Counted from the first letter of the stretch, positions 2,035 through 19,944 are shown. The stretch: 32,000 nt of DNA from Rhodocyclaceae bacterium (GCA_016704145.1 JADJAS010000007.1:48565-80564), one strand, 5' to 3'. Translations and numbers: made by a program. Notes: generated by a model not told the origin, from the letters alone.

Positions 2035-2048
2035 AAGAAGGAGACAAC

Positions 2049-3491
2049 ATGAAGGAATACAAACTGTTCATCGATGGGGAATGGGTGCCCTCCTCGACGG
2101 GCACCGTGCTCGATGACATCAATCCCGCCACGGGCGAGGTCTATGCCCGCATCCACCAGGCTTCCGACCAGGACATGGAACGCGCCATCGTCGCCGCGTA
2201 TCGGGCGCGCGAAGCCTGGGGCAACACGCTCGCCAACCAGCGCGAAACCATCATCCTGAAGGCCGCGGATATCCTGGAGCAGAGAATTCCCGAAGTGGCG
2301 GATGTCCTGATGGATGAAGCCGGCTCCGTGTTCGGCAAGGCCATGTTCGAAGCTTCGTTCGTCGTCAACCTACTGCGCAGTGCCGCCGGCGAATGCCGGC
2401 GCATCGTCGGCGAGACAATGCCCTCGGACAGCCCCGGCGTGTTCTCGATGAGCGTGCGCCGACCGCTGGGCGTCATCGCCGGCATCGCCCCTTTTAATTT
2501 CCCGTTCCTGCTGGCCACCAAGAAAGTCGCCCTGGCGCTTGCCGCTGGCAATACCTTCGTCCTGAAGCCGGCCACTTACACACCCGTCACCGGCCTGAAG
2601 ATCGCGGAAATCTTCGAAGCGGCCGGATTACCCAAGGGCGTGTTGAACGTCGTGCCGGTACAAGGTTCCGTGCTCGGCAACCGCTTTGTCGCCGACCCAC
2701 GCGTCCGGATGATCACGTTCACCGGTTCGACCGAGATCGGCAAGCAATTGGCCGCCGACGCCGGCAAGTATCTGAAGCGCATCACCCTCGAACTGGGCGG
2801 CAAGAGCCCGCTGATCGTGCTGCGCGACGCCGATCTCGACTATGCCGTGCGGGCTGCCGCCTTCGGGATATTCCTTCATCAGGGCCAGGTATGCATGGCC
2901 AACTCGCGCCTGATCGTCGAAGCGCCGATCTTCGATGCGTTCTGCGCCAAGCTCGTCGCCAAGGTCGGTGGCTACCAAGTGGGCGACCCGCATGACCCAC
3001 ATTCCGTCATCGGCCCGCTGATCGACCGCAAACAATGCGGCGTGCTCGACCGCCACGTGCAGGATGCCGTCGCCAAGGGCGCGCGCCTACTGACGGGCGG
3101 CAAGAACAACGGTGCCTTCTATCAACCCACCATCCTCGCCGACGTCACGCCCGAGATGGCGGTCTTCCGCGAGGAAACCTTCGGCCCCGCCGTCTCCGTG
3201 ATACGCGCCGAAAACAGCGACCACGCCCTGGCGCTGGCCAACGACTCCTGTTACGGCCTTTCGGCGGCCGTCATTACCAACGACCTCCAGAAAGCCTTCG
3301 ATCTATCGCTGCGTCTCGAATCGGGCATGGTGCACGTCAACGACTGCACGCTGCTCGACGAACCCCATGTGCCTTTCGGCGGTGTCAAGGACAGCGGCTT
3401 CGGGCGCGAGGGCGGCCATCATTCGATGGACGAGATGACCGAATTGAAGTGGATCACCGTGCAGCTCGGGCAACGCCAGTTCCCCTTCTGA
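2049..3491 (+). CDS. NAD(P)+-dependent aldehyde dehydrogenase, by context 4-hydroxybenzaldehyde dehydrogenase (PchA-like)
   Basis: ALDH motifs are present: FTGSTEIG, ELGGKSP (catalytic Glu) and FLHQGQVCMANSR (catalytic Cys). SD AAGGAGA lies 6 nt before ATG 2049 (MKEYKLFIDGEWV), which I prefer over the track start at 2016. Confidence 0.9.
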   Translation: MKEYKLFIDGEWVPSSTGTVLDDINPATGEVYARIHQASDQDMERAIVAAYRAREAWGNTLANQRETIILKAADILEQRIPEVADVLMDEAGSVFGKAMFEASFVVNLLRSAAGECRRIVGETMPSDSPGVFSMSVRRPLGVIAGIAPFNFPFLLATKKVALALAAGNTFVLKPATYTPVTGLKIAEIFEAAGLPKGVLNVVPVQGSVLGNRFVADPRVRMITFTGSTEIGKQLAADAGKYLKRITLELGGKSPLIVLRDADLDYAVRAAAFGIFLHQGQVCMANSRLIVEAPIFDAFCAKLVAKVGGYQVGDPHDPHSVIGPLIDRKQCGVLDRHVQDAVAKGARLLTGGKNNGAFYQPTILADVTPEMAVFREETFGPAVSVIRAENSDHALALANDSCYGLSAAVITNDLQKAFDLSLRLESGMVHVNDCTLLDEPHVPFGGVKDSGFGREGGHHSMDEMTELKWITVQLGQRQFPF

Positions 3492-5083
3492 TGCCGGAAT
3501 CGAGGTCACCGTCACCGCCCGTCGAGGACCTCGCGGACGCAATCAACGCCGTCGACGAGATCCTGGGCCCGCCGCTGGCGTCGGGTTGCGCAAGTCGTGC
3601 CGCGCTGCGCTGGGGCGCCGATCAATCGCTTAGCTTCGACGAACTGAACACACTGGTGAATCGTTATGGCCAGGCCCTGCGCAACGAAGGAGTGAAAGCC
3701 GGACAGCGTGTCTTCTTCCTACTCGACGATTCTCCCGAACTGGTGGCGGCGTATCTGGGCGCGATGCGGGTTGGTGGCATTGCCGTCGCGCTCAACATGC
3801 GGTTGGCGGCGAAGGATCTGTTGTTCATTCTCGACGATGCGTCGCCGGCGGTGCTGTTTATTCATGTCGATCTGCTCTCTCTCTACCGTGAGATCGAGGC
3901 GGCACTGACGACGCCGCCGCGCCTGGTGGTACTGGGGCGAGCCATCGCCGCCGACGATGATCTGGCCGCATTCCTCGCTGGCGCGGGTGACGTCTTGACA
4001 TCGATGCCCCGATCGCCGACCGATCCCGCCTATTGGGTCTATTCGTCCGGCACCACCGGCCGGCCGAAGGCCGCCATCCATCGCCATGGCGACATGCGGG
4101 TGGCCGATCTGCATCTGCGGATCAATCTCGGCGTCCAGCCGGGCGACCGGGTATTCACCACCTCGAAGATGTTCTTCGCTTTTGCGCTCGGCCATTCGCT
4201 GTTCGGCGCCCTGCGCTGCGGCGCGACGGTCGTCATTCATGCCGGCTGGCCGGACGCCGCGGCCATTGGCGAGGCAGTACGCCGCGAACGGCCGACGGTG
4301 ATGCTGAGCGTGCCGACGATGTACCGCAACCTCCTGCACGAGGGCGTCGCGACCGATCCCGCCTTCCGTGGCGTGCGCCACTACGTTTCGGCCGGCGAGA
4401 AACTCCCGGAAGCCGTGTTCGAGGCATGGGTCGACGCGACCGGCGTGCCCATCCTGGAAGGCTACGGCACTTCGGAAACGGTATTCCTGGCGATCGCCAA
4501 CACGCCGCGCAGCTACCGTGTCGGCAGCAGCGGCCGCCCCTTGCCGTGGGCCGAAGCCCGTCTGACCGACGAAAGCGGCGCGGCGATCAACATGCCGAAC
4601 ACGCCGGGACGGCTGGCGCTGCGGATGGGCTCGGTGTTCGCCGGTTACTGGCGCCAGCCAGACCTGAGCCGGGAATTCCTTCATGACGACTGGTATTTTC
4701 CCGGCGACATGTTCAGCTTCGACGAGTCCGGCTGGTGGTACCACCATGGCCGCGCCGACGACATGTTGAAGATCTCCGGACAGTGGGTCAGTCCGAGCGA
4801 GATCGAGGACTGCGCGCTCACGGTCGAGGAGTTGGCCGAAGTCGCCGTGATCGGCCACGCCAATGCCGATGGCCTGATCCGCCTGGCCATGTTCGCCGTT
4901 CCGCGTTCGCCGATACGGGACGAAGCGGCGCTCGCCCGGAAAGTGGGCGACAAGTTGCACGCCACCCTGTCGATCTACAAGTGTCCACGAACCATCCGGT
5001 TCATTACCGAACTTCCTCGCACGTCAACCGGCAAGGTACAAAAGTTCAAGCTGCGCGGACTGTTGGAGATCGCCACTTCCTGA
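3491..5083 (+). CDS. AMP-forming aromatic acid-CoA ligase (benzoate / 4-hydroxybenzoate-CoA ligase family)
   Basis: Adenylate-forming motifs: WVYSSGTTGRPKA, GYGTSET, YHHGRADDMLKISGQWVSP and C-terminal PRTSTGKVQKFKLR. ATG 3491 overlaps the ALDH stop (TGATG). The track ORF start at 3035 is an Arg-rich out-of-frame overlap with the ALDH gene. Confidence 0.85.
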   Translation: MPESRSPSPPVEDLADAINAVDEILGPPLASGCASRAALRWGADQSLSFDELNTLVNRYGQALRNEGVKAGQRVFFLLDDSPELVAAYLGAMRVGGIAVALNMRLAAKDLLFILDDASPAVLFIHVDLLSLYREIEAALTTPPRLVVLGRAIAADDDLAAFLAGAGDVLTSMPRSPTDPAYWVYSSGTTGRPKAAIHRHGDMRVADLHLRINLGVQPGDRVFTTSKMFFAFALGHSLFGALRCGATVVIHAGWPDAAAIGEAVRRERPTVMLSVPTMYRNLLHEGVATDPAFRGVRHYVSAGEKLPEAVFEAWVDATGVPILEGYGTSETVFLAIANTPRSYRVGSSGRPLPWAEARLTDESGAAINMPNTPGRLALRMGSVFAGYWRQPDLSREFLHDDWYFPGDMFSFDESGWWYHHGRADDMLKISGQWVSPSEIEDCALTVEELAEVAVIGHANADGLIRLAMFAVPRSPIRDEAALARKVGDKLHATLSIYKCPRTIRFITELPRTSTGKVQKFKLRGLLEIATS

Positions 5084-5102
5084 GCGATATGGGGCATTCA
5101 CG

Positions 5103-6647
5103 ATGAGCAAGTATGTCGCGTTACCCAAGGGCGTTGACGAAGCCACTTTTGACCGAGCGATCGCCGAATTCAGAAACATCGTCGGCGCCGAGCATGTATT
5201 GCACTCGGCCGAGGCACTGGGGCCGTTCCTCAAGATCATGATCCCGGCACCGATCGAGGCCCACGCACCATCGGCGGCGATCGCCCCCGCGAGCGTCGAG
5301 GAAGTACAGCGCATCCTCGCGGTCTGCAACCGCTACAAGACCCCTGTGTGGCCCGTCTCCACCGGCAAGAATTTCGGCTATGGCTCGGCCGCGCCAGCCA
5401 CGCGAGGACAGATCATCCTTGACCTCAAGCGGATGAACCGGATCATCGAAGTCGATCCCGATCTTTGCACTGCCTTGGTCGAACCTGGCGTCACCTATCA
5501 GCAACTGTACGACTACATCAAGGAACGCAATCTGCCGCTGTGGATCGACCCGCCGATACCCGGGCCGGTGGCGGGACCACTCGGCAATACAGTCGAACGC
5601 GGGGTTGGCTACACACCCTACGGCGAGCATTTCCTGTTCTCCTGCGGCATGGAAGTGGTTTTAGCCGATGGCCAGGTGCTGCGCACCGGCATGGGCGCCA
5701 TGCCCAACTCCAATACCTGGCAGGTGTTCAAGTGGGGTTATGGACCGACGCTGGATGGCATCTTTACCCAATCGAGCTTCGGCATCGTCACCAAGCTCGG
5801 CCTGTGGTTGATGCCCGCGCCGCCGGCCTACAAGCCATTCGTGGTCCGTTACCCCGAGCACGCCGACATCGCCAAGGCCATCGACACCATCCGGCCGCTA
5901 CGAATCGCCCAGATCATTCCCAATGCCGGCACGGTTTCCAACGCCTTGTGGGAGCTAGCGGTGATCAACCGCCGCGCCGACCTGTACCCGCAGGCGGAGC
6001 CGATTCCCGATACAACGGTACTCGACCTCGCCAAGAAACACGGTGTCGGCGCATGGAACGTCTATACCGCTCTTTATGGCACCGAGGAAACCATCGCCGC
6101 CCACTGGAAAATCGTGACGGCCGCCTTCAAGGCCTCCGGCGGCACCGTGCTCACCCAGGAGGACGTCGGCCCAGACGATCCACTGTTCAACTATCGTCGC
6201 GACGTGATGCGCGGCGACCTGACGATGCGGGAGTTCGGCCTCTACAACTGGCGCGGCGGCGGTGGCTCGATGTGGTTCTCGCCCGTCTCGCAGGCCCGCG
6301 GCAGCGAGACGCTGAAGCAGATGGGACTGGCCAGGCGCGTGCTGGACAAGTTCGGCATCGACTACGTCGGGCTATTCGTCATCGGCTGGCGCGACATGCA
6401 CCACATCATCGACATCCTCTACGACCGCGGCCAGCCGGAAGCAATGGCCAAGGCACGCCGGTGCTACGACGAACTGCTCGACGATTTCGCGCGGGAAGGC
6501 TATGGCGTCTATCGGACCAACATCGACTTCATGGCGAAAGTCGCCAAGCTCTACGGGCCCGTCAAGGCCAAAGTGAATCGCCGCATCAAGCGGGCGCTTG
6601 ACCCTAATGGCATACTGGCGCCAGGCAAGTCCGGCATCCACGGCTGA
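5103..6647 (+). CDS. pchF: p-cresol methylhydroxylase family flavoprotein subunit (PchF-like), paralog 2
   Basis: 514-aa ORF collinear with the 487-2034 product over its full length. By eye roughly 60 percent of residues are identical, with long shared blocks such as DPxLCTALVEPGVTYQQLYDY and YTPYGEHFLFSCGMEVVLA. It keeps FGLYNWRGGGGS and GVYR. Confidence 0.85.
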   Translation: MSKYVALPKGVDEATFDRAIAEFRNIVGAEHVLHSAEALGPFLKIMIPAPIEAHAPSAAIAPASVEEVQRILAVCNRYKTPVWPVSTGKNFGYGSAAPATRGQIILDLKRMNRIIEVDPDLCTALVEPGVTYQQLYDYIKERNLPLWIDPPIPGPVAGPLGNTVERGVGYTPYGEHFLFSCGMEVVLADGQVLRTGMGAMPNSNTWQVFKWGYGPTLDGIFTQSSFGIVTKLGLWLMPAPPAYKPFVVRYPEHADIAKAIDTIRPLRIAQIIPNAGTVSNALWELAVINRRADLYPQAEPIPDTTVLDLAKKHGVGAWNVYTALYGTEETIAAHWKIVTAAFKASGGTVLTQEDVGPDDPLFNYRRDVMRGDLTMREFGLYNWRGGGGSMWFSPVSQARGSETLKQMGLARRVLDKFGIDYVGLFVIGWRDMHHIIDILYDRGQPEAMAKARRCYDELLDDFAREGYGVYRTNIDFMAKVAKLYGPVKAKVNRRIKRALDPNGILAPGKSGIHG

Positions 6648-6715
6648 GGGGCCGAGCCTCGCCCCGGCGGCGACCAAAGTCAGCCTTGGCGGCACGCCGC
6701 CCGAGCCTGTTTGGT

Positions 6716-7492
6716 CTACGGATGCAGCAACGCATAACCGCCGGCGTCGATCACCAAGCAAGTCAGCATCCCGCTGGCATGGGCACCGGTATCGATGCCG
6801 ATCCGGTTGTGGCGAAACTGCGGTCGGGCATCGATGCTATGGCCGTGCACGATCACGGCGCCAAAGTCCTCGTCGCTGGCCAGAAATGCTTGCCTGACCC
6901 AAAGCTGATCGTGCCGGGCCTGCAACGCCAGCGGCACCCCCGGCGCCACGCCGGCATGGACAAAATGATAGCCACCCTCGGCGTGATTGATCGCCAGATC
7001 GGCCAGAAACTGCCGATGAGCCAACGGCAAGGCGCTCCGAAAATCCCGGCGCAGCGAATCCACCGACTCATCGCTGCCGGTAAATCGACCCGCGATATCT
7101 ACCCCGTAGCTCGCAAGCGTCGCCAGGCCACCGCCATGCTCGAACCATTGGCGCCCTCCCGCCAGGTCACCCTCGATGAAGCGAAGCGCCAGGTCTTCGT
7201 GGTTTCCGCGCAGCAGCCTGATCTCCAGACCGGCGGGCCGCCATTGCCGCAGATTTTCGACGACACCGAAAGCATCCGGTCCCCGGCTCAAGTAGTCGCC
7301 GAGAAAGATCACCACCCGGCGCCGGCGGCCGTGCCCTGCGGCATCCTCGACAATGGCACGCTCCATGGATTCGAGAAGATCGCGACGGCCATGAAGATCG
7401 CCGATCGCGTACACGCGCACGCCCGGCGGCAGCAGGCCCGCCGGCGCAGGCGTGGCGCCACAAACGGCGGGCGACAGCCAAGTGAGCGCCAA
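6716..7492 (-). CDS. metallophosphoesterase (PrpA/ApaH-like Ser/Thr phosphatase or diadenosine tetraphosphatase family)
   Basis: Calcineurin-like phosphoesterase motifs in order: IGDLHG, GDYLSRGPD, RGNHE, FVHAG, VHGH. The track start at 7492 is TTG, 6 nt after the upstream stop. An internal GTG (VRVYAIGDLHG) is an alternative start, so the 5' end is uncertain. Confidence 0.75.
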   Translation of the reverse strand: MALTWLSPAVCGATPAPAGLLPPGVRVYAIGDLHGRRDLLESMERAIVEDAAGHGRRRRVVIFLGDYLSRGPDAFGVVENLRQWRPAGLEIRLLRGNHEDLALRFIEGDLAGGRQWFEHGGGLATLASYGVDIAGRFTGSDESVDSLRRDFRSALPLAHRQFLADLAINHAEGGYHFVHAGVAPGVPLALQARHDQLWVRQAFLASDEDFGAVIVHGHSIDARPQFRHNRIGIDTGAHASGMLTCLVIDAGGYALLHP

Positions 7493-7498
7493 GCCGGC

Positions 7499-8806
7499 CT
7501 AGGCCATATCGTCGTCACGCCGGACGAAGAAGCGCTTGGCCTTCATTTCGAACCTGGGCAGCGCATTGCGGGCCACCAGATGTACCCGCGGCCGGAACGC
7601 CAACAAGGTATCGAGCTTGTCGGCAATGGCATGCACGACATCGGGATGCGCCCCCTCGCAAAGCTCGATCTCGACATCCATCTCGTCCATCTGCCTTTCC
7701 TTGTGCACCGTGACGCGAAACTCGTCGACCTCGGTGAACTTGCGCAGGATGTTTTCCACGCCCGCCGGGAAGACATTGACGCCACGCACGGTGACCATGT
7801 CGTCAGCGCGGCCGAGAATGCCGCCGGCGAAACGCAGGAAGCTTCTGCCGCACGCGCACGGACGCGAATCGATCCTGACCACGTCGCCCGTCTTGTAGCG
7901 AATCACCGGAAAGCCCCAGCGCCCGAGGTTGGTGATCACCATCTCGCCGCGCTCGCCCTCGCCTACCGGCGCGCCGGTCTCGGGGTCGAGCACTTCGACG
8001 ATGTATTCCGACTCGATCAGGTGCGTGCCGCCGGGCTGCTCCGAGCATTCGAACGAATGGGCGCCGACCTCGGAAGCGCCGGCGTGGTCGAAACAGTGGG
8101 CCGACCACGACTCCTCGATGCGCCGCTTGGTCGCCGGAACATTGGCACCCGGCTCACCGGCATGAATGGTCGCCCGCATCGGAATCCTGCCGAGATCGAA
8201 GCCGATCTCGCGACCGACTTCGGCCAGACGCAGCGCATAGGTCGGCGTGCAGCAGAGGGTGGTGGCGCCGGCCTCCTTCATGAGTTCCAGGCGCTGTTGC
8301 GAATCGCGACCGCCACCGGGAATCATCACCGCGCCGATCTTGCGAGCGCCTTCGACGGCCGCCCAGAAGCCGATGAAGGGACCGAAGGCGAAGGCCAGGA
8401 ACACCCGATCGGACGCCGTCACACCGGCCCCGGCCAACACGTGCCCCCAGCAACGCCCCCACCAGTCCCAGGAAGCATCGGTATCGAAAACCTTGAGTGG
8501 CACGCCAGTGGTTCCCGAGGTCTGGTGCATGCGCACATAAGCATCCAGCGGGTAGGTCAAATTGGTGCCGAACGGCGCTTCGGCGGCCTGGTCATCCATC
8601 AACTCGCTCTTGCGGGTCAGCGGCAGATGGCGCAGATCGTCCAATGTCTTGATATCGCCTGGCTCGATACCGGCCTCCTGCCACTTTCGGGTGTAGAAAC
8701 GGTTGCGCCTCCAAAGCTCATGGCTCATGGCACGCAGCTTGGCCACTTGAAGTTCGGCGAGCCTGTCGCGCGGCATGGTCTCGGTGGCTTGATCGAAGAA
8801 TGGCAT
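7499..8806 (-). CDS. phenylacetate-CoA ligase-like (PaaK / F390 synthetase family) adenylating enzyme
   Basis: 435 aa from ATG 8806 (MPFFDQATETMPRDRLAELQVAKLR), which has the typical PaaK-family N-terminus and size. HQTSGTTGVPLKV is the AMP-binding motif. The track extension to 8872 would overlap the upstream gene. Confidence 0.8.
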   Translation of the reverse strand: MPFFDQATETMPRDRLAELQVAKLRAMSHELWRRNRFYTRKWQEAGIEPGDIKTLDDLRHLPLTRKSELMDDQAAEAPFGTNLTYPLDAYVRMHQTSGTTGVPLKVFDTDASWDWWGRCWGHVLAGAGVTASDRVFLAFAFGPFIGFWAAVEGARKIGAVMIPGGGRDSQQRLELMKEAGATTLCCTPTYALRLAEVGREIGFDLGRIPMRATIHAGEPGANVPATKRRIEESWSAHCFDHAGASEVGAHSFECSEQPGGTHLIESEYIVEVLDPETGAPVGEGERGEMVITNLGRWGFPVIRYKTGDVVRIDSRPCACGRSFLRFAGGILGRADDMVTVRGVNVFPAGVENILRKFTEVDEFRVTVHKERQMDEMDVEIELCEGAHPDVVHAIADKLDTLLAFRPRVHLVARNALPRFEMKAKRFFVRRDDDMA

Positions 8807-8843
8807 GATGGTCGTGTTCCCGGTGTCGATGAATGGAAATGGT

Positions 8844-9305
8844 TCAGGCAATCGCGGCGCGCATCTCCGCATAAACCGCCTGCTCCATGCGCAGCATCGC
8901 TTCCCGTTGTTCGGCCGGCCATTCGTACATCAGTGCCGTTGTCTTGACGCCTCGCCAGCTTTGGTCGCGGGCGCCCATGACCTCCATCTCCCACAGCATG
9001 ATGACGTTGGGCGCGGCCGCCTCGATGCGCGACTTGACTTGCCGAGCCCTGCCCTTGATCAGAAAGCTGACATCGTCGGGACCGATGACCTGCAATGACA
9101 CCAGGCCGGTGCGTTGTGCATTGGCCATCGCCGAACCGCCATCGTCGACACCGAAGCGCACGCACTTGTCGTCCAGGGCCACTACCCAGGTGTAGGCGGA
9201 GGTCGCATAGCCATCCGCGCCGGCCGTGAGCAACAAGGCCGGCGCGCCGGGACGCAGGTAGCCAAGCAGCCTGGCGGGAAGATTGGGGGTCACGCTACCG
9301 ATCAT
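8844..9305 (-). CDS. small PNPOx-like / flavin-reductase-like split-barrel protein (tentative), function unknown
   Basis: 153-aa ORF with SD AAAGGAA before ATG 9305. The pattern LLLTAGADGYATSAY...VRFGV...NAQRTGLVSLQVIGPDDVSFLIKGRARQV resembles FMN-binding split-barrel proteins. The assignment rests on pattern recognition only. Confidence 0.45.
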   Translation of the reverse strand: MIGSVTPNLPARLLGYLRPGAPALLLTAGADGYATSAYTWVVALDDKCVRFGVDDGGSAMANAQRTGLVSLQVIGPDDVSFLIKGRARQVKSRIEAAAPNVIMLWEMEVMGARDQSWRGVKTTALMYEWPAEQREAMLRMEQAVYAEMRAAIA

Positions 9306-9333
9306 TTCAGTGTTCCTTTAGGTGAGAAGGCGG

Positions 9334-9837
9334 TCAACGCCACGTCGCCGTGGCGTCATTGATGACTGACAAGAACCAGCGATCCAGCGCACTGGCGGCA
9401 AGCGGTACGGTCTGACGCGGCACGCTGCCTCGCCCGAACAGGCCGACTTCCAGCGCATCATCGCCGGCAAGCGGTTCCCCACCGAGCGAACGCGCGCCAT
9501 AGGCAACGATCACCACGTTCACGTCGGCCTGCGAATAGACACCGAGCACTCGGTCGACGGCCACGACCAACCCGCATTCCTCGGCGACTTCACGGACGAC
9601 GGCATCGGACAGGGACTCGCCGCACTCGACGTAGCCACCCGGCGGGGCCCAGTATCCCACCAACGGATCGACCCGCCGGCGAATCATGACCAGACCGTTG
9701 CGATGCTCGACCATGGCGAGACAGACCGGCGCGGGATTCCGATAGGCGACGGCGCCGCAGCACGAACAGCGCTCGCGCCGGCGGCCATCCACCTCGGCCC
9801 ATTCGAGGCGCGATCCGCACATTCGGCAATAGGCCAT
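9334..9837 (-). CDS. Nudix hydrolase with N-terminal zinc-ribbon
   Basis: Nudix box GGYVECGESLSDAVVREVAEECGL. N-terminal CRMCGS...CSCCGA four-Cys ribbon. ATG 9837 lies 6 nt after the upstream stop. Confidence 0.85.
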   Translation of the reverse strand: MAYCRMCGSRLEWAEVDGRRRERCSCCGAVAYRNPAPVCLAMVEHRNGLVMIRRRVDPLVGYWAPPGGYVECGESLSDAVVREVAEECGLVVAVDRVLGVYSQADVNVVIVAYGARSLGGEPLAGDDALEVGLFGRGSVPRQTVPLAASALDRWFLSVINDATATWR

Positions 9838-9843
9838 CGCCGC

Positions 9844-10245
9844 TCACACCACCGCCAAAGTCAGCCGTAGCGGATCGCCGTCGTGCAAGCCCAGCGAATC
9901 ACGTACCGACACCGCCGCCAGCAATTCCAGCTTGTCGGCCGGGTATCCGTCCACCTCGGGAACCACCGCCGTCGCCAGCAGGCCGCCGGCAAGCTCGGCG
10001 CCAAAACACTTGGCGCGGCAAAAGCCGGTCGCAGGCTCGATGGCCACGCCCGTGGCGCCTGCCATGCTCTCCCGCGCCAGCCGCCAGTTCTCCCCGTGCA
10101 TCAGCAGATTGAGTGTGCCCGGATAGGGCACATAGCCAAGCTTTGCCACGATCTGCTCGACCAGCCACGGCAACGATGCAAAGCCGGCACCCTCGCCGAG
10201 TCCAAAGGTCACGGTGCCCTCCACCGGCATCGCCAGCGGCGTCAT
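9844..10245 (-). CDS. archaeal-type CTP-dependent riboflavin kinase homolog (DUF120 / RibK-like)
   Basis: 133 aa. GLGEGAGFASLPW...LGYVPYPGTLNL and AVVPE...LELLAAVSVRDSLGLHDGDPLRLTL align well with my recollection of Methanocaldococcus MJ0056 RibK (GLGEGRYF...GFEPYEGTLNL ... LKDGD). The start overlaps the ubiX stop as ATGA. Confidence 0.7.
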   Translation of the reverse strand: MTPLAMPVEGTVTFGLGEGAGFASLPWLVEQIVAKLGYVPYPGTLNLLMHGENWRLARESMAGATGVAIEPATGFCRAKCFGAELAGGLLATAVVPEVDGYPADKLELLAAVSVRDSLGLHDGDPLRLTLAVV

Positions 10246-10841
10246 GCCGGATCGCCTCCGCCGTTCCCGGCGCGCTCGCGTTCTTCATTGCCCGTCCAGC
10301 GCTTGAACAGGTTGAGGTCAAGATCGAACTGGTCGAGCGCCTTGTTCACCGATTGGATGATCACGTCGTCGAGCGTCCGCGGGCGATGATAGAAAGCCGG
10401 CAGTGGCGGCACGAGTACCGCGCCGATTTCCGTCACCTGGGTCATCAAGCGAAGGTGGCCGAGATGAAGCGGCGTTTCGCGCACCATCAGCACCAGTTTG
10501 CGCCGCTCCTTGAGCGTGACGTCGGCGGCGCGGATCAGCAGGTTGGTATTGAACGAATTGGCAAGCGCCGACAGGGTCTTGATCGAACATGGCGCGATCA
10601 CCATGCCGTTGTGCCTGAACGAACCGGAGGAGATACAGGCGCCGACATCGTTGATGCTGTGCACGTGGCTGGCCAGATCCTTGACTTGCTCGACACTGTA
10701 ATCCGTTTCGTAGGCGATGGTCCGCTTGCCGGAATCCGACATCACCAGATGCGTTTCGACGCCAGCCTGACGCAATACTTCAAGAATGCGTACACCATAG
10801 ATGGCGCCACTCGCGCCCGAAATGCCCACCACCAGTTTCAT
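10242..10841 (-). CDS. ubiX: flavin prenyltransferase UbiX (prFMN synthase)
   Basis: MKLVVGISGASGAIYG N-terminus, plus MVIAPCSIKTLSALANS and RERRKLVLMVRETPLH. ATG 10841 overlaps the UbiD-like stop as ATGA and has GAGGAA upstream. The track start at 10859 is TTG and less likely. Confidence 0.9.
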   Translation of the reverse strand: MKLVVGISGASGAIYGVRILEVLRQAGVETHLVMSDSGKRTIAYETDYSVEQVKDLASHVHSINDVGACISSGSFRHNGMVIAPCSIKTLSALANSFNTNLLIRAADVTLKERRKLVLMVRETPLHLGHLRLMTQVTEIGAVLVPPLPAFYHRPRTLDDVIIQSVNKALDQFDLDLNLFKRWTGNEERERAGNGGGDPA

Positions 10842-12196
10842 ACCTTGGTTCCTCGCCAATCCAGATTCGCCACGACCGACCGTGCCACGGCGACAGCCTC
10901 CAACGGAATGGCGATCTTGTCAAACTCCGGGCCAGATCCGCGCGTGGCGTCGAAGCCCATTTTCGACCCGGTGCCTGCGGCGGACGAGGGGTCGATGACG
11001 TAACCTTCCATACCATCGAGAACCACCAGGTCGCGTGCCGCCTGAAAACGGGTAGCGAGGGCCCAGGCCACTTCGCGCGGATTCCGAATATCGACATCGT
11101 CATCGACCACAGTGACGCTCTTCAAGCGTTTGTCCAGGGTCAGCGCCAGATGAATGATCCTGCGCACTTCGTGCGAGGGACAGTGGCGCACCGCAATCAC
11201 GCCAGCGAAGCTGCTGGTGCCAGGCACCAGTTCCAGGTCCACGATCCCGCGCGCCAGGCTCTTGAGTTGCCCCAACAGTTCGGCGCCACCGGCAAGGGAG
11301 AGCAGGGTATCGACATCCGCCGTCCACGGCACGAGCGCCGGAAAGATGAAATCTTCGCGATGGCAGACCGCGCTCAGCTCGACCACGGGGCTGGTATTGG
11401 AAAAGTAGCAGCCCGTGTTCTCGCCAAACGGTCCCTCGGGTTCACGCACCCCGGGAAACACATGGCCCTCCAGGACGACTTCGGCGCGCGCCGGGATATC
11501 CAGGTCTACTGTCAGGCCCCGAACCAGTTCCACCGGCGCTCCGCGCAGCGCCCCGGCAATCTCCATCTTGTCGGGGCCCAGCGGCCCGACCTTCACCACC
11601 GCCGCCATCAGCAGCGCCGGCTCGACCCCAAGCGCCACCGCCACCTCGAGCGGCTCGCCCCGACTCTCTGCGTTGGCGAGAAACTGCGAAAGGGGAGGAT
11701 TGGCGAGCAGAATACCGAAACGGTTCCCGCCCTTGTACATCATCCGGTGGATGCCCATGCCGCGCTGGCCGGTCGCCGGGTCGCGCGCCAGCACCACACC
11801 GCAGGTCAGGAACGGCGCCGCGTCCTTTTCGTAATGCGTCAGCAGCGGCAACAAGGCGGCGACATCGCACGGTGCGCGGTGCACGACGGCATGCACCGGC
11901 GCAGCCGTCGCCCGCACGGGCGGCACTCGTTGAGCACTGCGCGCGACGTAGGTATCCACCAGCTTGCCCTCGTCGGCGCCTAGCGCCCGAGCCGCCAGCC
12001 GCCGGCTCGCCAGCAGGTTGCCGGCGACGCGCCGACCGGGATACCCCTTGATGTTATCGCAGACGACGGCGCGGCCACTGGCCTGCATTTCCGCGAGCAG
12101 CGCAGCAACCTCGAAGCGCGGGTTCAGGGGGGCGTCGACACGAATGACGTCGTCGCCAAGACCTTCCAGAAATGCGCGCAAATCAGGATAGGCCAT
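10838..12196 (-). CDS. UbiD-family (prFMN-dependent) decarboxylase/carboxylase paralog, third copy in the operon
   Basis: 452-aa ORF with the UbiD-like N-terminus MAYPDLRAFLEGLGDDVIRVDAPLNPRFEVAALL and PFGENTGCY. It is collinear with the two larger UbiD-like genes upstream. Confidence 0.8.
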   Translation of the reverse strand: MAYPDLRAFLEGLGDDVIRVDAPLNPRFEVAALLAEMQASGRAVVCDNIKGYPGRRVAGNLLASRRLAARALGADEGKLVDTYVARSAQRVPPVRATAAPVHAVVHRAPCDVAALLPLLTHYEKDAAPFLTCGVVLARDPATGQRGMGIHRMMYKGGNRFGILLANPPLSQFLANAESRGEPLEVAVALGVEPALLMAAVVKVGPLGPDKMEIAGALRGAPVELVRGLTVDLDIPARAEVVLEGHVFPGVREPEGPFGENTGCYFSNTSPVVELSAVCHREDFIFPALVPWTADVDTLLSLAGGAELLGQLKSLARGIVDLELVPGTSSFAGVIAVRHCPSHEVRRIIHLALTLDKRLKSVTVVDDDVDIRNPREVAWALATRFQAARDLVVLDGMEGYVIDPSSAAGTGSKMGFDATRGSGPEFDKIAIPLEAVAVARSVVANLDWRGTKV

Positions 12197-12202
12197 GCCG
12201 GG

Positions 12203-12457
12203 CTACAGGTACTTCGCCGGCATGCGCTGCACTTCGTCCAGCACCTGGATGGAAAAACGGTTGTTGCTCAGCTGGCCGCGACCGAGGCGCACTTGCAGTT
12301 GGTCGACGTGCTTCTTCAAGTTGGTGGAGACCTGGCACTTCACCCGCTTGTAGGTGAACTTGTGCAAGCCGGGGTTGAGCGTGCGGATGGTCAGCTCGAG
12401 ATCGGTGTCCTCGGCGAGTTCCTTCACGTCGTTCACGAAAACTTCCCATTGGTTCAT
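12203..12457 (-). CDS. ppcD: phenylphosphate carboxylase small (about 10 kDa) subunit
   Basis: 84-aa ORF with SD GAGGAGA before ATG 12457. Its size and its position directly after the second UbiD-like subunit match the ppcBCAD order I recall for Thauera/Aromatoleum. The subunit letter is assigned from gene order and size. Confidence 0.65.
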   Translation of the reverse strand: MNQWEVFVNDVKELAEDTDLELTIRTLNPGLHKFTYKRVKCQVSTNLKKHVDQLQVRLGRGQLSNNRFSIQVLDEVQRMPAKYL

Positions 12458-12469
12458 TTGCTTGTCTCC

Positions 12470-13918
12470 TCACTTCACGGGTGGGTAGCCATACGCCGTC
12501 CAGTTGGCAAGCACCTTGTCCTGGATCGCCTGCGGATAGACGTTCTTGAACGACACCAGGGTAGGCACGTCGTTGACCGGGTCCCAATCGACCGGCCAAA
12601 GGCAATCGAACAGCACCTTGGAGCCGATGGAATACTTGCGTTCGTGAGGCGTGGCAAACGGATAGAGCGGCGTGCCGGTGGTGTTCTTGTAGACGTGGAT
12701 ACCGTTGGCCGGATGACAACGGGTGCAGAAGGCGTGATAGACCTCGTCCCAGTTGTAGATGTCGGTCTTGTCATCGACCACCATCACCATGTGGAACCAT
12801 GGGCCGAGCTTGGAGCCAAAAGCAAGTTGCGCAATCTGCTGGGCGATCCCCGAGTACGTTGGCTTGACGCCGACGATCATCATGTGGTGCGTTGAGCGCG
12901 GGTGCATGTACACGCCGGTGACCGGGATGCCCTGACTTTTCAGCAGCTTCTCCAGCTCGAGACCGAGCGAGAAGGAGCGCAGCAACTGCCCCTCGTCCTG
13001 CGGCACGCCCATATTGGAGATGGTCATCGTCGCGTTGTTGCGGAAGGTGATGCAATTGACGCGAAAAGTGACGCGGAACTCACGCGGGCTGGTGCGATAG
13101 CCGGTGTATTCGCCGAAGGGTCCTTCCTCCACCTTGTAGTCGGGGCAGATCTCGCCCTCGAGGATAATCTCGGCGTCGGCCGGCACCTCGAGGTCATTGG
13201 TCTCGCACTTCACCAGGCGCGCCGGCTCGCCGGCCAGCATGCCGACCAGATCCGGCTCGGGAATCGGCGAGGGCGCGCAGGCCGCCATGGCGGCCAGCGG
13301 CGACAGGCCGATGGCGGTGGCGAACGGGCAACTCTCGCCGCGCGGCAGGTAGTAGTCGTTCAGTGCCTTGCCCAGATCGGAAAAGGGAAACACCGCGCCC
13401 GACATGGTGCGCGAATCGAACATCATCTGGCGATACATACCCCAGTTCACGTCACCGCGCACCGGGTGCTTGGTCACCACGGCGTGCCAGGTACCGACAT
13501 AGCGGCCGCCGTCGCCCTCGTGCACCAGCGGTACCGGCAGCTTGCACAGGTCGACGTCGGCGCCCTTGAGGATGTTCTCTTTGCAGGGCGCGTCCTTCTT
13601 GTCCACCAGCACTGGCGGGACCGGCTCGCCGTTGGTGCGCTTGAGGTACTCCTTGCCGATCTCGGGCAGGCTGGCAGCCGGATCCATGCCGAGCGAGATG
13701 GCCATGCGCCGATAGGTCGACAGCGGCGCACCGAAATAGGAGAAGCCGGGATAGTCCTTGATCCGCTCCATGAAGGGCGCCGGCGCCGCCAGCTCGCAGG
13801 CGCGGCGAACGATCGCTCCGGCTTCGTTTTCCCAATCCACTTCCTGCTTGATGCGCACGGCGTCGCCGCTTTTGATGCAGGCCTCGATGAACTCGCGATT
13901 GCTGCGGGGTGCCGCCAC
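12470..13918 (-). CDS. ppcA: phenylphosphate carboxylase UbiD-like large subunit (about 54 kDa)
   Basis: UbiD-family sequence (EGPFGEYTGY). I prefer GTG 13918, preceded by AAGGAGA (7-nt spacer), giving 482 aa. This removes the 28-nt overlap implied by the track start at 13957. Confidence 0.8.
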   Translation of the reverse strand: MAAPRSNREFIEACIKSGDAVRIKQEVDWENEAGAIVRRACELAAPAPFMERIKDYPGFSYFGAPLSTYRRMAISLGMDPAASLPEIGKEYLKRTNGEPVPPVLVDKKDAPCKENILKGADVDLCKLPVPLVHEGDGGRYVGTWHAVVTKHPVRGDVNWGMYRQMMFDSRTMSGAVFPFSDLGKALNDYYLPRGESCPFATAIGLSPLAAMAACAPSPIPEPDLVGMLAGEPARLVKCETNDLEVPADAEIILEGEICPDYKVEEGPFGEYTGYRTSPREFRVTFRVNCITFRNNATMTISNMGVPQDEGQLLRSFSLGLELEKLLKSQGIPVTGVYMHPRSTHHMMIVGVKPTYSGIAQQIAQLAFGSKLGPWFHMVMVVDDKTDIYNWDEVYHAFCTRCHPANGIHVYKNTTGTPLYPFATPHERKYSIGSKVLFDCLWPVDWDPVNDVPTLVSFKNVYPQAIQDKVLANWTAYGYPPVK

Positions 13919-13929
13919 GTCTCGTCTCC

Positions 13930-14436
13930 TTATATCTTGGAAAGAATCTTGTCCCACTTGCCCTGCGTCTTCAGGATCAACTCGGCCACCTCGCGCACGG
14001 CGCCATGGCCGCCAGGCGCCTTGGTGACGTACACCGCCGCCTCCCGCACTTCATCCACCGCGTCGGCCACCGCCACCGGGAAGCCGACCCGCTTCATCAT
14101 CGACAGGTCGACCAGGTCGTCGCCGACGTAAGCCACCTGGCTGTCGGTGATGGCCATCTCCTTCAGCATCAGCTCGTAGGGCTCGGTCTTCTTCTTGATG
14201 CCCTCGTGGAAGTACTTGATCTTCAGCTCATCGGCGCGGTGGCGCACGGCGCCCGACTTCTTCGAGGTGATGATGGCGACGTCGACACCGGTCATCTGCA
14301 GCGCGACCACGCCGAAGCCGTCCTTGATGTCGAAGTTGCGCTGCTCCAGGCCATTGTCGTCGATGACGATGCGCCCGTCGGTCATGACCCCGTCGACGTC
14401 GAGGATGACCAGCTTGATGTCTTTCGCCTTGTCCAT
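13930..14436 (-). CDS. ppcC: phenylphosphate carboxylase 18-kDa HAD-phosphatase subunit (KdsC-like)
   Basis: 168 aa. HAD motif I (ILDVDGVMTDG), ITSKKS, and a GDDLVDL motif typical of KdsC-type phosphatases. It lies between the two UbiD-like subunit genes. Confidence 0.8.
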   Translation of the reverse strand: MDKAKDIKLVILDVDGVMTDGRIVIDDNGLEQRNFDIKDGFGVVALQMTGVDVAIITSKKSGAVRHRADELKIKYFHEGIKKKTEPYELMLKEMAITDSQVAYVGDDLVDLSMMKRVGFPVAVADAVDEVREAAVYVTKAPGGHGAVREVAELILKTQGKWDKILSKI

Positions 14437-14445
14437 GTTTCCCTC

Positions 14446-15864
14446 TCAGTCGATTCCGTATTCCGCCCAGCGGCCGCGTATCTTCGCCAGCATCGCCTCG
14501 TCCATGCGCGCCTCGACCGGCTTCTGCTTCCACTCGTAGGGAATGCAGGCGTCCATCAGGATGCGCGAGGTGGTGAGCTTGTCCGAGTTCGGGTCGAGCG
14601 CCGGATCGAGCGGGGTGGAGCGGCCACGCTTGATCAGCTCCGTGCCGCGCAACGGGTCGTAGCGGCATGACAGCGCCCAGAACACGCGCTGCAGGTCGTC
14701 GGCCATGATGTCCTCATCCACCGTGATGACACCCTTGATGCCGTAGGAGCCGGTGTTGCTGCCGATCACCGCGTCGGCGACCTGGCGCGAATGTCCCGGG
14801 TAGGACTGCTTGAGCGAGACGACGGCCCAGAAACGGCCGGCCGACTCGGGCAGCACGCAGACCGACTGCACGCCGGGGATCTTCATCTTCTCCAGTTCGG
14901 TCCACAGCGTCGCCGTGCGGGTGAAGGCGAGCAGCATGTGCACGTCGGTCACCGGGCGACCCTGGCCGGTGGCCCACAGCACGGAGTTGTTGCGGTGAAG
15001 GATCTGCTTCACCTCCAGCGCCGGCTTGAGGATCGGCTTGTGCAGTTCGTCGGTGTAGTAGCCGGTGTATTCGGCAAAGGGGCCTTCCTGGCGGAAGTTG
15101 TTCGGGTCGATCTCGCCTTCCAGCACGATCTCGGCGCCGGCCGGGACCGGCAGGCCGGTCAGCGGCGCCATCAGGAATTCGGCCGGCTGGCCGCGCACCG
15201 TGCCGGTGATGTCGAAGTCGTTGGCGCCCTTGTGCATCAGCGTGCCGGCCATGAAGATCAGCGGGTCGCAACCGATCACCGCGGCGGCCGGCATCTTCTT
15301 GCCCATCTTGGCGTACTTCTTCATGATCCGCTCACCACGCTTGCCCGGCAGAATCTGCACGCCGCAGGTCTTGTCGTCGAGCATCTGCATCCGGTAGGTG
15401 CCAAGATTGGTCTCGCCGGTCTCGGGGTCGCGCAGCACGACGAATACCATGGTGCCGATGTAACGACCGCCGTCGAGCGGAAAGAATTTCGGCACCGGGA
15501 ACATATTGAGGTCGACCTTGTCGCCGGCAAGGATGTTCTCCAGCACCGGGCCGTCCTTGACCTCCTTCGCCTTGATCAGTCCTTCGGAAGTGATGGTCTT
15601 CTTCATCCAGGCCTGGGCCGACTCGCACATCGACAGGTGGTGCGGTAGACCGAGCATGATGGCCAGGCGCTTGGTGGTGGCAAAGGCACCGGTGAACACC
15701 GGCGTGTCGTAGCCACTGACTTTCTCGAACAGCAACGCCGGGCCCTTGCGCTCCTCGGTCAACTTGGAGACATGCGATATCTCGAGGTTCCAGTCGACTT
15801 CTGTCGTGATCCGCCTCAGCTCGTTGGCCTCGTCACACTGATTGATGAAATAACGCAAATCCAT
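14446..15864 (-). CDS. ppcB: phenylphosphate carboxylase UbiD-like large subunit (about 53 kDa)
   Basis: 472-aa UbiD-family ORF (EGPFAEYTGYY). SD GAAGGAG lies before ATG 15864, 20 nt after the ppsC stop. Confidence 0.8.
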   Translation of the reverse strand: MDLRYFINQCDEANELRRITTEVDWNLEISHVSKLTEERKGPALLFEKVSGYDTPVFTGAFATTKRLAIMLGLPHHLSMCESAQAWMKKTITSEGLIKAKEVKDGPVLENILAGDKVDLNMFPVPKFFPLDGGRYIGTMVFVVLRDPETGETNLGTYRMQMLDDKTCGVQILPGKRGERIMKKYAKMGKKMPAAAVIGCDPLIFMAGTLMHKGANDFDITGTVRGQPAEFLMAPLTGLPVPAGAEIVLEGEIDPNNFRQEGPFAEYTGYYTDELHKPILKPALEVKQILHRNNSVLWATGQGRPVTDVHMLLAFTRTATLWTELEKMKIPGVQSVCVLPESAGRFWAVVSLKQSYPGHSRQVADAVIGSNTGSYGIKGVITVDEDIMADDLQRVFWALSCRYDPLRGTELIKRGRSTPLDPALDPNSDKLTTSRILMDACIPYEWKQKPVEARMDEAMLAKIRGRWAEYGID

Positions 15865-15884
15865 TGATGATGCTCCTTCTCGGG

Positions 15885-16583
15885 TTAGTGCTGTGTGTTG
15901 TCCGTCGTCGCCATCGGTCTCGTGGCCTGGACCGATTCGATCACCTGAAAGCCAGCTCGCTCGATCGCCGCCACGACCTGCCCGGTATCGTCACTGTGAA
16001 ACCGGATCACCACGCGCTTGAACGGATGTGTTCGCGGATTGACATCAGTCGGTTTGCCAATGGGATAGATCGCCTGCAGTTCGGCGCCGGCGGCTTCGAC
16101 GATGTCGGCAATCCGTCCGATCGTGCCGGGCTTGACATCCATCGGCGCCAAGGTGACACCGCTGCGTTTTTCCCAGGCGCTCAGGAAGTGGGCCGCCAGG
16201 GCGAACATCTCGTTCGCCGAGATGATGCCGACGACCCGGCCATCCTCCATCACTGGCAACTGGGCGATGCCATGTTCAATCCCCACTTCCAGGCAGTGCT
16301 CCATGGTGTCGGACGCCTGGATGGTGACCGGATTGCGCACCATCAGGTCCTTGACCTTGACGCGCGTCGAGAAGTAGTTCTGTTCGTCGGCATCCTGCGT
16401 TCGCAGGACATAGTGCGCGGCACGCAGACAAATCGCCCGCGTGATCAGTCCGCGCAGCCGGCCATCATCCACCACCGGCAGCCCGTGCAGATTGTTGTCC
16501 GTGATGATTTGTTTCGCCTCGTGCACCAGGGTGTCGCTGCCGACTACGATGGGGTTCCGTTGCATCCAGTTGCGTACCAGCAC
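15885..16583 (-). CDS. ppsC: phenylphosphate synthase stimulating subunit (CBS-pair plus ACT-like domain)
   Basis: 232 aa (about 24 kDa). Two CBS-like repeats (MQRNPIVVGSDT...GLPVVDDGRLRGLIT and MVRNPVTIQASD...QLPVMEDGRVVGIIS). GTG start at 16583 is preceded by AAGGGAGAA. Confidence 0.8.
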   Translation of the reverse strand: MLVRNWMQRNPIVVGSDTLVHEAKQIITDNNLHGLPVVDDGRLRGLITRAICLRAAHYVLRTQDADEQNYFSTRVKVKDLMVRNPVTIQASDTMEHCLEVGIEHGIAQLPVMEDGRVVGIISANEMFALAAHFLSAWEKRSGVTLAPMDVKPGTIGRIADIVEAAGAELQAIYPIGKPTDVNPRTHPFKRVVIRFHSDDTGQVVAAIERAGFQVIESVQATRPMATTDNTQH

Positions 16584-16595
16584 CGTCTTCTCCCT

Positions 16596-17711: not shown

Positions 17712-17734
17712 GCGTCGTCTCCGTGGTTCGGGTG

Positions 17735-19570: not shown

Positions 19571-19649
19571 CGTCTGCCTCCTCCTGGAGAACGTCGTTCG
19601 TCCGGGCCGATGAACGAACACTGGGTTGACTTTCCTGTCCTACCAACCA

Positions 19650-19664
19650 GCAAAGCCCATGCCA
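19650..19664 (-). promoter_or_regulatory. sigma54 (-24/-12) promoter of the pps/ppc operon
   Basis: The minus strand reads TGGCATGGGCTTTGC (GG-N10-GC spacing; consensus TGGCAC-N5-TTGC). It lies about 80 nt upstream of ppsA ATG 19570, and a sigma54 activator gene is divergent. Confidence 0.7.
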
Positions 19665-19833
19665 TGTCTCGTGCTGTGGCGCAACATGGGCGAACCCGGG
19701 CGAGCCCACCCGATACTGGTCAATCTTGACCATCAGACGATAGCCATCGGCGTGCACACGCAGCAACGTTGCTCGGAGTGTCGCGTTGCCACCAATGGGA
19801 CGATCGGGCGTGGCGGAAAAACTCGATTGTTGT

Positions 19834-19875: not shown

Positions 19876-19944
19876 GGAGCAAGCGATGATCGAGCAACGG
19901 CTGACGGCAACGGAAAGCTCGGACGAAAATTGCTCGACCATGGC

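Follow-up and report, generated by a model that had tools for sequence, protein, structure and literature searches.

Four consecutive genes at 8844-10841 of a 32,000-nucleotide stretch of Rhodocyclaceae bacterium DNA (GCA_016704145.1, JADJAS010000007.1:48565-80564; the whole stretch is called the window below) would form, with a probability of roughly 0.6, a module that provisions prenylated flavin mononucleotide (prFMN) to the carboxylase of the phenylphosphate carboxylase operon in which they lie. They encode the flavin prenyltransferase UbiX, a DUF120 protein of the archaeal riboflavin-kinase (RibK) family, a zinc-ribbon Nudix hydrolase and a PPOX-like split-barrel protein. The original prediction, made from the DNA alone, had placed the first three directly after three UbiD-type genes, and reading of the DNA together with profile hidden Markov models (HMMs) confirms these genes and their places, on the minus strand. 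Its count of three genes did not stand, as a fourth, PPOX-like gene (9305-8844) had been missed. The prediction also called the set self-contained, which was an overstatement: besides the PPOX-like gene a second PNPOx gene was overlooked, and flavin reduction was left unaccounted for. At the computational level the cofactor-supply interpretation is nevertheless supported, if incomplete. The genes that are central to the argument are as follows (model cutoffs are given after the scores).

12196-10838, minus strand: third gene of the UbiD family, 452 aa, distinct from the Ppc subunits (TIGR00148, 274 bits vs 245)
10841-10242, minus strand: ubiX, encoding a flavin prenyltransferase of 199 aa counted from the ATG at 10841 (NF004685, 268.8 bits vs 188)
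10245-9844, minus strand: DUF120/RibK-family protein, 133 aa (PF01982, 88.4 bits vs 25)
9837-9334, minus strand: zinc-ribbon Nudix hydrolase, 167 aa (PF00293, 48.8 bits vs 21.1)
9305-8844, minus strand: PPOX-like split-barrel protein, 153 aa (weak matches to NF005232 and TIGR03618)
21755-22213, plus strand: second PNPOx-type flavoprotein, of the 'gene A' type described below (PF01243, 36.9 bits)

The junctions are as predicted: ATGA overlaps, read from the DNA, join the third-UbiD stop to the ubiX start and the ubiX stop to the DUF120 start, and 6 nt (GCGGCG) separate the DUF120 stop from the Nudix ATG. The PPOX-like gene begins 28 nt past the Nudix stop, and AGGA precedes its ATG. UbiX is also recognized by TIGR00421 (244.5 bits, cutoff 108.9) and PF02441.

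In the mechanism that we propose the four genes would share a transcript with the UbiD-type genes of phenylphosphate carboxylase, and their translation would in part be coupled to that of the latter. The UbiX family is established to condense reduced flavin mononucleotide (FMNH2) with dimethylallyl phosphate (DMAP) to prFMNH2, and the UbiX of the window would do the same. The DUF120 protein, as a bacterial offshoot of the archaeal riboflavin kinase that depends on cytidine triphosphate (CTP), would make FMN from riboflavin and CTP, while the Nudix enzyme would convert dimethylallyl diphosphate (DMAPP) to DMAP, the main alternative being hydrolysis of flavin adenine dinucleotide (FAD) to FMN and adenosine monophosphate (AMP). 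As judged at low resolution from fold and context, the PPOX-like protein probably binds, matures or hands over the reduced cofactor, and the PNPOx protein of 21755-22213 probably takes part as well, possibly as flavin reductase. The clients using prFMN would be PpcA, PpcB and the third UbiD, according to their family membership.

The conserved core of DUF120, UbiX and split-barrel proteins

The DUF120 gene is a bona fide member of the archaeal riboflavin-kinase family. The PF01982 alignment spans profile positions 1-119 of 121, and the AlphaFold model (predicted local distance difference test score, pLDDT, 89.4) resembles the cradle-loop barrel of Thermoplasma acidophilum RbkR (5trd; Foldseek E 2e-10, template modelling (TM) score 0.86-0.87) and Methanocaldococcus jannaschii RibK MJ0056 (2vbu, 2vbv and 2oyn; TM 0.78-0.81), such archaeal RbkR/RibK structures being its sole significant matches in the PDB. 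Both the family assignment and the remark that the fold is typical of archaea were thus well placed in the original prediction; RibK orthologues have been stated to be absent from Bacteria (Rodionova et al. 2017, PMC5397151). The same paper lists the CTP-binding motifs SGMGEGR, YxGTLN and KYLR, and six FMN contacts (Y109, Y115, F165, P185, Y190 and E195) of the T. acidophilum enzyme, taRbkR, which we transferred to the window protein via an ungapped HMMER alignment. The CTP/Mg motifs are kept (G15/G17/G19; Y41-P-G-T44-L45-N46; V114-R115), as are five of the six flavin contacts, i.e. F22, F75, P96, Y101 and E107, the last of which corresponds to the proposed catalytic base. Cys76, which stands just after the flavin-contact Phe75, is invariant in all 15 aligned DUF120 proteins of the bacterial clade (alignment A6); this position is Gly in 37 of 56 archaeal RibK sequences. 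Conserved sites, fold, genomic context and natural fusions taken together, the protein is probably a riboflavin kinase that provides a dedicated FMN supply.

For the genomic context, a pattern scan was run with each GTDB species represented by one genome, and the best 80 loci (24 bacterial, 56 archaeal) were used; their neighbours were identified by tblastn with the window proteins in 10-kb flanks. Sampled loci are denoted Lnnn and proteins Pnnnn, and taxon names are those of the deposited metagenome-assembled genome (MAG) records. UbiX adjoins DUF120 or lies within about 2 kb of it in 19 of the 24 bacterial loci, a proportion that is not an unbiased frequency since the 80 loci are those most similar to the query, and no archaeal locus of the 56 has it near DUF120. 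Many of the Rhodocyclales loci are related by descent and do not count as independent events, so that the independent support comes from six or more architectures and from the fusions. The UbiX-linked loci belong to Pseudomonadota, Bacillota (including Thermincola), Chloroflexota, Methylomirabilota, Acidobacteriota, Desulfobacterota and Binatia, i.e. to seven or more phyla with at least six architectures, and many of them are without ppc genes. The conserved linkage to ubiX that had been predicted for both accessory genes thus holds well beyond this operon for DUF120, and in fewer lineages for the Nudix gene.

The gene order of the window is shared by phenol clusters of Rhodocyclales and Burkholderiales (L001-L008, L014) and by that of Aromatoleum aromaticum (L081). 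The order in Thermincola is ppsA, ppsB, DUF120, UbiX, four ppc genes and three more UbiD genes, in Methylomirabilia PNPOx, UbiX, UbiD, DUF120, in Chloroflexota MFS transporter, DUF120, UbiX, and in one Bacillota locus (L030) a DUF120::HAD fusion, one open reading frame, UbiX and a Nudix gene. A different block is found in six loci of Desulfobacterota, Acidobacteriota and Binatia (L023, L027, L036, L065, L070, L071), where the order is MoxR-type AAA, CoxE-type VWA, two XdhC, DUF120, UbiX, in some cases type-2 isopentenyl diphosphate (IPP) isomerase (IDI-2), a PNPOx gene (gene A), a PPOX-like gene (gene B) and amidohydrolase_2; no ppc or UbiD gene lies in the 10-kb flanks of these six loci. The isomerase is present in L023, L027 and L070 (TIGR02151, 411-417 bits, cutoff 281). 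A metagenome scan, seeded from the other subclade and dominated by short contigs, gave 63 archaeal-type and 17 bacterial-type loci among 80, with four UbiX-linked loci: DUF120-UbiX-IDI2 (L085, L086), DUF120-UbiX (L091) and UbiX/UbiD/DUF120 (L096).

There are a few side observations on these loci. The six-locus block, at about 6500-13200 in each, is always preceded by the MoxR-type AAA, the CoxE-type VWA and the two XdhC genes, the last being molybdenum-cofactor insertion factors, and the amidohydrolase_2 gene follows it in L036, L065 and L071. The MAG of Thermincola sp. NRBC carries, after ppcD, three paralogues of the third UbiD in tandem (L015, 15064-19130; 43-49% identical to that of the window), and the NRBC isolate label suggests an origin from a benzene-degrading enrichment culture. 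A Nitrososphaerota MAG (L012) carries two DUF120 genes less than 3 kb apart (7310-7666 and 10001-10387), a hint that archaea, too, may have RibK paralogues that differ in function. In A. aromaticum a stand-alone gene for GTP cyclohydrolase II, with which riboflavin synthesis begins, is located some 4 kb past the DUF120-Nudix pair (PF00925; L081, CP091977, 12418-13110), and may hint at an extra riboflavin supply.

Natural fusions support the ties of DUF120 to prFMN-related partners. A search of 1.84 billion representative proteins returned 896 relatives, many of them longer than the query, and the fusions were typed with Pfam and NCBIfam. DUF120::HAD fusions are frequent, and an MFS::DUF120 fusion was found. 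An IDI-2::DUF120 fusion (P0260; TIGR02151, 348 bits) is encoded in a locus (L084) with the order UbiD, cupin, Phenyl_P_gamma, IDI-2::DUF120, UbiX, and a triple fusion HAD::DUF120::IDI-2 also occurs (P0334). The halves of a DUF120::PNPOx fusion (P0259) are 40% identical to the window DUF120 protein and 48% identical to the window PNPOx protein of 21755-22213, respectively.

The PPOX-like protein of the window, which in many Rhodocyclales bears the label 'pyridoxamine 5'-phosphate oxidase family' or 'hypothetical', is modelled as a split barrel (pLDDT 88.8). Its first Foldseek match is the uncharacterised 2q9k (TM 0.76), followed at ranks 2-3 by PhdC of Mycolicibacterium fortuitum (9nk4/9nk0, 'prenylated-FMN maturase'; E 2e-5, TM 0.63). 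The protein shares homology with the gene B that adjoins UbiX in other phyla (pairwise E 8e-7 and 2e-5), and an hhalign comparison of the window subfamily with gene B gives a probability of 96% (E 1.4e-9). The gene-B profile has PhdC (9nk0) as its top PDB sequence (E 3.8e-6), and so does a profile merged from the window subfamily and gene B (E 3e-5); the window subfamily profile alone, searched against PDB sequences, returned noise only. Assignment of the window protein to the gene A type was rejected, as no relationship was detected. Gene A, which follows UbiX in the Desulfobacterota and Binatia loci, has its counterpart in the second PNPOx gene of the window, whose product shares 40% identity with the gene A next to UbiX in L036 (profile A4, E 4.7e-41). 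Its TTG start overlaps the stop of a gene for an XylR-type sigma-54 regulator (20004-21758). With this gene, the window has every recurring partner except IDI-2.

The conserved bacterial core consists of DUF120, UbiX and a PPOX-type protein, to which individual lineages add, interchangeably, the Nudix hydrolase, the type-2 IPP isomerase or HAD phosphatases. In a neighbour-joining tree the bacterial DUF120 proteins form one clade beside Bathyarchaeia, which suggests a single ancient transfer of the gene from archaea to bacteria.

Enzyme substrates and competing explanations

The Nudix box GX5EX7REUXEEXGU is intact in the window protein, GYVECGESLSDAVVREVAEECGL, and the N-terminus carries the pattern CxxC...CxCC (C4, C7, C24, C26/C27). 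On the zinc-ribbon model PF14803 this protein stays under the cutoff (20.3 vs 25.6 bits), and close homologues carry PF14803 in precomputed annotation. Membership of the Nudix superfamily, as predicted, is clear. No curated subfamily could be assigned: none of the NCBIfam subfamily models exceeds its cutoff, the top one being the NudC-type NAD+ diphosphatase with 40 bits against a cutoff of 158. Homologues with 51-60% identity are found in Aromatoleum, Azoarcus and Sulfuritalea, and one with 51% in a Chloroflexota MAG where the Nudix gene shares an overlap with ubiX, genes for a histidine phosphatase and a PaaK-like ligase coming next; DUF120 is absent from that locus. Two Chloroflexota loci (L082, 8001-11244; L083, 1862-4914) have this set of zinc-ribbon Nudix, UbiX, His_Phos_1 and PaaK-like ligase genes. 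A ligase gene likewise trails the module of the window, so that the pairing of ligase and UbiX is seen in two phyla. The Nudix gene after UbiX in L030 is an unrelated, NudE-like one. The link between Nudix and UbiX is real and narrower, in terms of lineages, than that between DUF120 and UbiX. A polycistronic UbiD-UbiX-Nudix transcript has been described from a benzene-degrading culture (PMC5852087), and a passage of PMC12359138, which cites Wang et al. 2018, has the E. coli enzymes NudJ, NudB, NudF and NudI turning DMAPP into DMAP for prFMN. By analogy, we tentatively suggest that the window enzyme takes off DMAPP's terminal phosphate and so yields DMAP, for which the chances seem a little short of even.

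A different role would be hydrolysis of FAD to FMN and AMP, so that both accessory enzymes feed the flavin side of UbiX. The best Nudix matches, weak as they are, are hydrolases of dinucleotides and ADP-X compounds (the NudC-type model with its 40 bits, and the source annotation of homologues as 'ADP-ribose pyrophosphatase YjhB'), and the NudE-like enzyme after UbiX in L030 is an ADP-compound hydrolase. However, these matches are all under cutoff, and E. coli NudF, an ADP-ribose pyrophosphatase, hydrolyses DMAPP as well according to that passage of PMC12359138, which means that the Nudix subfamily does not discriminate the substrate. Moreover, the presence of a type-2 IPP isomerase in other UbiX-DUF120 loci shows that the supply of the prenyl donor is under selection. 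We hold the hydrolysis of FAD to be a serious but less probable alternative, and keep DMAPP as the tentative substrate.

A number of observations weigh against the provisioning module, and they concern each of its parts. As to the Nudix hydrolase, it is no orthologue of NudJ, NudB, NudF or NudI (NudB-type model 25.7 bits vs 103, NudI 22.7 vs 95; no NudJ or NudF model among the matches listed), a canonical Nudix box was found within 10 kb of DUF120 solely in ppc loci of the Rhodocyclales type and in L030, and no obvious DMAPP phosphatase was seen in the loci that contain IDI-2. As to DUF120, the position of taRbkR Tyr115, described as absolutely conserved among archaea, is Leu28 in the window protein, beside an invariant Trp27. 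The protein is also far under the NCBIfam cutoffs for RibK equivalogs (NF040694 ribK_Meth, 47.9 vs 168; NF010762, 71.6 vs 279), hence it is filed as a family member whose exact substrate we infer. In three bacterial loci (L010, L020, L056) DUF120 is fused or adjacent to a HAD phosphatase and not to UbiX, an Acidoferrum-type subclade (L028) has DUF120 without either partner, and several other loci of the metagenome scan are HAD-linked or of the L028 type. As to the PPOX-like protein, Glu45 of PhdC, which was located by comparing the wild-type chain with the E45A mutant chain (PDB 9NK3/9NK4), is an invariant Glu in gene B and an invariant Trp40 in the window subfamily, for which reason we call the protein PhdC-related and not a PhdC-type maturase; moreover, the gene is absent from the clusters of A. 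aromaticum, Azoarcus Aa7 and A. toluolicum. As to the client, the use of prFMN by phenylphosphate carboxylase is inferred from family membership. Finally, it can be argued that bacteria already carry the riboflavin kinase RibF, and the need for a second one may be questioned. A rationale for a dedicated kinase can be seen in that FMN is consumed stoichiometrically by UbiX while the housekeeping RibF carries FMN onward to FAD, and in that the recurring partners, UbiX, IDI-2 and the PNPOx proteins, all need FMN.

The altered Tyr115 position, the scores under the equivalog cutoffs and the clade-invariant Cys76 beside F75 might also be taken to mean that DUF120 is a kinase for something other than riboflavin, such as prenol (which would give DMAP directly), dephosphorylated prFMN (in a salvage reaction) or reduced riboflavin; DMAP, unlike FMN, is not obviously supplied to UbiX by ordinary metabolism. 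The active site argues otherwise, as five of six flavin contacts and all the CTP motifs are retained, and 19 of the 56 sampled archaeal sequences, most of them from Bathyarchaeia, have a Trp-Val/Ala variant at the Tyr115 site as well. The partners of DUF120 (IDI-2, PNPOx, UbiX) are all FMN proteins, and its MFS and HAD fusions resemble known riboflavin-kinase architectures, the plant FMN hydrolase/riboflavin kinase being a fused enzyme of this kind. Another substrate is therefore improbable. Prenol, the alternative that the original prediction had offered, was rejected as leading reading on the conserved flavin contacts, and a prenol kinase would in addition be redundant with a DMAPP-directed Nudix hydrolase in the same operon.

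It may also be asked whether the small genes are without any particular tie to the carboxylase, and serve the third UbiD alone or are housekeeping and sanitising genes (a MutT-like Nudix hydrolase, a spare flavin kinase) that are there by chance. The third UbiD and UbiX resemble the VdcC/VdcB pairs of hydroxyarylic acid decarboxylases and always stand together in Rhodocyclales loci, and the Nudix homologues are in places annotated as 8-oxo-dGTP diphosphatase. Such an explanation is very improbable, as DUF120-UbiX adjacency recurs across unrelated contexts and phyla and as fusions, and stop codons that overlap the next start speak in favour of joint expression. The DUF120-UbiX pair of Thermincola stands in the interval from the pps to the ppc genes, remote from the three additional UbiD paralogues, which are found at the cluster's far end, and a supply to the third UbiD alone would still be a prFMN supply. 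Last, a UbiX-linked DUF120 protein acting as a DMAPP:riboflavin phosphotransferase, or otherwise using a prenyl-diphosphate donor, and yielding FMN and DMAP in one reaction is extremely improbable, even if it would account for the IDI-2::DUF120 fusion directly upstream of ubiX (IDI-2 makes DMAPP), for the missing recognisable DMAPP phosphatase in the IDI-2 loci and for the clade-specific changes at the flavin and donor sites (Trp27, invariant Cys76).

The operon and its probable client carboxylase

The proposed provisioning module lies within a single long minus-strand gene array, an operon for the anaerobic degradation of phenol, that spans 19621 to 6716 of the window (GC content ~62%). The other genes of the array are listed below.

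19621-17735, minus strand: PEP-utilizer protein, phenylphosphate synthase-like
17711-16596, minus strand: PPDK_N protein, phenylphosphate synthase-like
16583-15885, minus strand: CBS protein, phenylphosphate synthase-like
15864-14446, minus strand: phenylphosphate carboxylase beta (TIGR02724, 1048.6 bits, above the NCBIfam cutoff)
14436-13930, minus strand: phenylphosphate carboxylase delta, HAD-type (TIGR02726, 298.8 bits, above cutoff)
about 13918-12470, minus strand: phenylphosphate carboxylase alpha (TIGR02723, 1048.7 bits, above cutoff)
12457-12203, minus strand: phenylphosphate carboxylase gamma, 84 aa (TIGR02725, 135.2 bits, cutoff 135.55; PF09662, 135.7 bits)
8806-7499, minus strand: PaaK-like aryl-CoA ligase (PF14535 and PF00501; NF041878 and TIGR02155 below cutoff)
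7492-6716, minus strand: calcineurin-like phosphoesterase, end of the operon (PF00149, 43.8 bits)

All four subunit genes (alpha, beta, gamma, delta) are present, gamma being marginal on NCBIfam: its score is just under the cutoff, so automatic annotation may leave the gene nameless. The third UbiD is VdcC-like, with 254 bits under that model's cutoff of 650, and is found upstream of ubiX also in L001-L008, L014 and L081; it is a probable client of the module. A scan of 6000-20200 for promoters and terminators gave nothing that exceeds the shuffled expectation and no terminator-like site within the array, between the module and the ppc genes or elsewhere, and an Rfam scan of the window and L081 detected no FMN riboswitch and no other family.

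The ligase gene follows the module also in L001, L003-L005, L007 and L008, and is present in the Chloroflexota loci L082 and L083. The phosphoesterase gene starts 6 nt past the ligase stop and has relatives with 44-52% identity within the same clusters (L001-L003, L007, L008); the enzyme could be another phosphatase of the supply route. On the plus strand, the region 487-6647 of the window contains genes for two PCMH-like FAD_binding_4 oxidases, an aldehyde dehydrogenase and an AMP-binding CoA ligase, which looks like a route from p-cresol or 4-hydroxybenzyl alcohol to 4-hydroxybenzoyl-CoA, convergent with the phenol operon.

Comparison with known systems and implications

It is instructive to compare the components of the module with their characterized counterparts. 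The window DUF120 protein has in common with RibK MJ0056 (2VBV) and the RbkR kinase domain (5TRD) the Pfam family, the fold, the phosphate loops GxGxG and YxGTLN, the Leu/Arg base contact, the catalytic Glu and five of the six flavin contacts. It differs from them in that it is bacterial, lacks the helix-turn-helix domain and is tied to UbiX rather than to rib genes, as well as in having Trp27-Leu28 for Tyr115, the clade-invariant Cys76 and scores below the equivalog cutoffs. Unlike archaeal RibK, it is presumably not the sole riboflavin kinase of the cell, if the general presence of RibF in bacteria holds here. As for the prenyl donor, a Nudix enzyme is proposed as the source of DMAP here as in E. 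coli, where NudJ, NudB, NudF and NudI, or ThiM, supply it according to the same passage of PMC12359138. The window enzyme is, however, of a zinc-ribbon subfamily and encoded in the ubiX operon, whereas the E. coli activities are promiscuous and their genes unlinked.

The PPOX-like protein is comparable to PhdC of the M. fortuitum PhdA/B/C phenazine decarboxylase system (9NK0-9NK4), which is likewise a small PNPOx-type split barrel encoded with UbiX/UbiD and which, among proteins of solved structure, is closest in sequence to the gene-B family. The similarity is very distant (17-19% identity, TM 0.63), with Trp in place of Glu45, a residue that is kept in gene B of Desulfobacterota and Binatia, and the host metabolism is anaerobic in the system of the window, unlike that of PhdC. 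A further parallel are the prFMNH2 chaperones of the LpdD/VdcD type, small accessories encoded with UbiX/UbiD that aid cofactor loading of UbiD decarboxylases (PMC10865409). Their fold is unrelated to that of the window accessories, and the window module would act mainly upstream, in substrate supply, and not in hand-over alone.

The phenol cluster of the A. aromaticum genome has the same order as the window, i.e. pps, ppcB, ppcC, ppcA, ppcD, third UbiD, UbiX, DUF120 and Nudix, and the window has in addition the PPOX-like gene, the PaaK-like ligase and the metallophosphoesterase after Nudix. Sequences of phenol clusters have been available for two decades, and the genes in question already carry the database labels 'CTP-dependent riboflavin kinase' and 'NUDIX hydrolase'. 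Among the full texts searched (8 million, with older subscription papers outside the search), we found nothing that links RibK/DUF120 or 'riboflavin kinase' to UbiX, prFMN or phenylphosphate carboxylase, and no text on the clusters of Thauera aromatica and Aromatoleum aromaticum EbN1, older primary papers again lying outside the search, that gives a role to DUF120 or Nudix. The synthesis of prFMN by UbiX, the promiscuous DMAP supply of E. coli and the accessory proteins LpdD and PhdC are already known. What appears to be new, as we could not find an earlier report of it, is a prFMN operon that carries its own predicted enzymes for supplying the substrates, built on a conserved core of DUF120, UbiX and PPOX.

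The supply and activation of prFMN limit the use of UbiD (de)carboxylases in CO2 fixation and in the anaerobic degradation of phenol, benzene and naphthalene. A supply kit encoded in the operon points to genes that might be co-expressed toward active holoenzymes, especially in the absence of oxygen. The maturation of prFMNH2 without oxygen has been noted as an open question (PMC10865409), and concrete candidates for such anoxic maturation are the PhdC-related and PNPOx genes found in company with UbiX among bacteria of anaerobic metabolism. The linkage to UbiX would also give a first functional context to the bacterial members of a kinase family that has been described as archaea-specific (PMC5397151), and it points to an old transfer from an archaeon to a bacterium that was followed by recruitment of the enzyme to cofactor modification.

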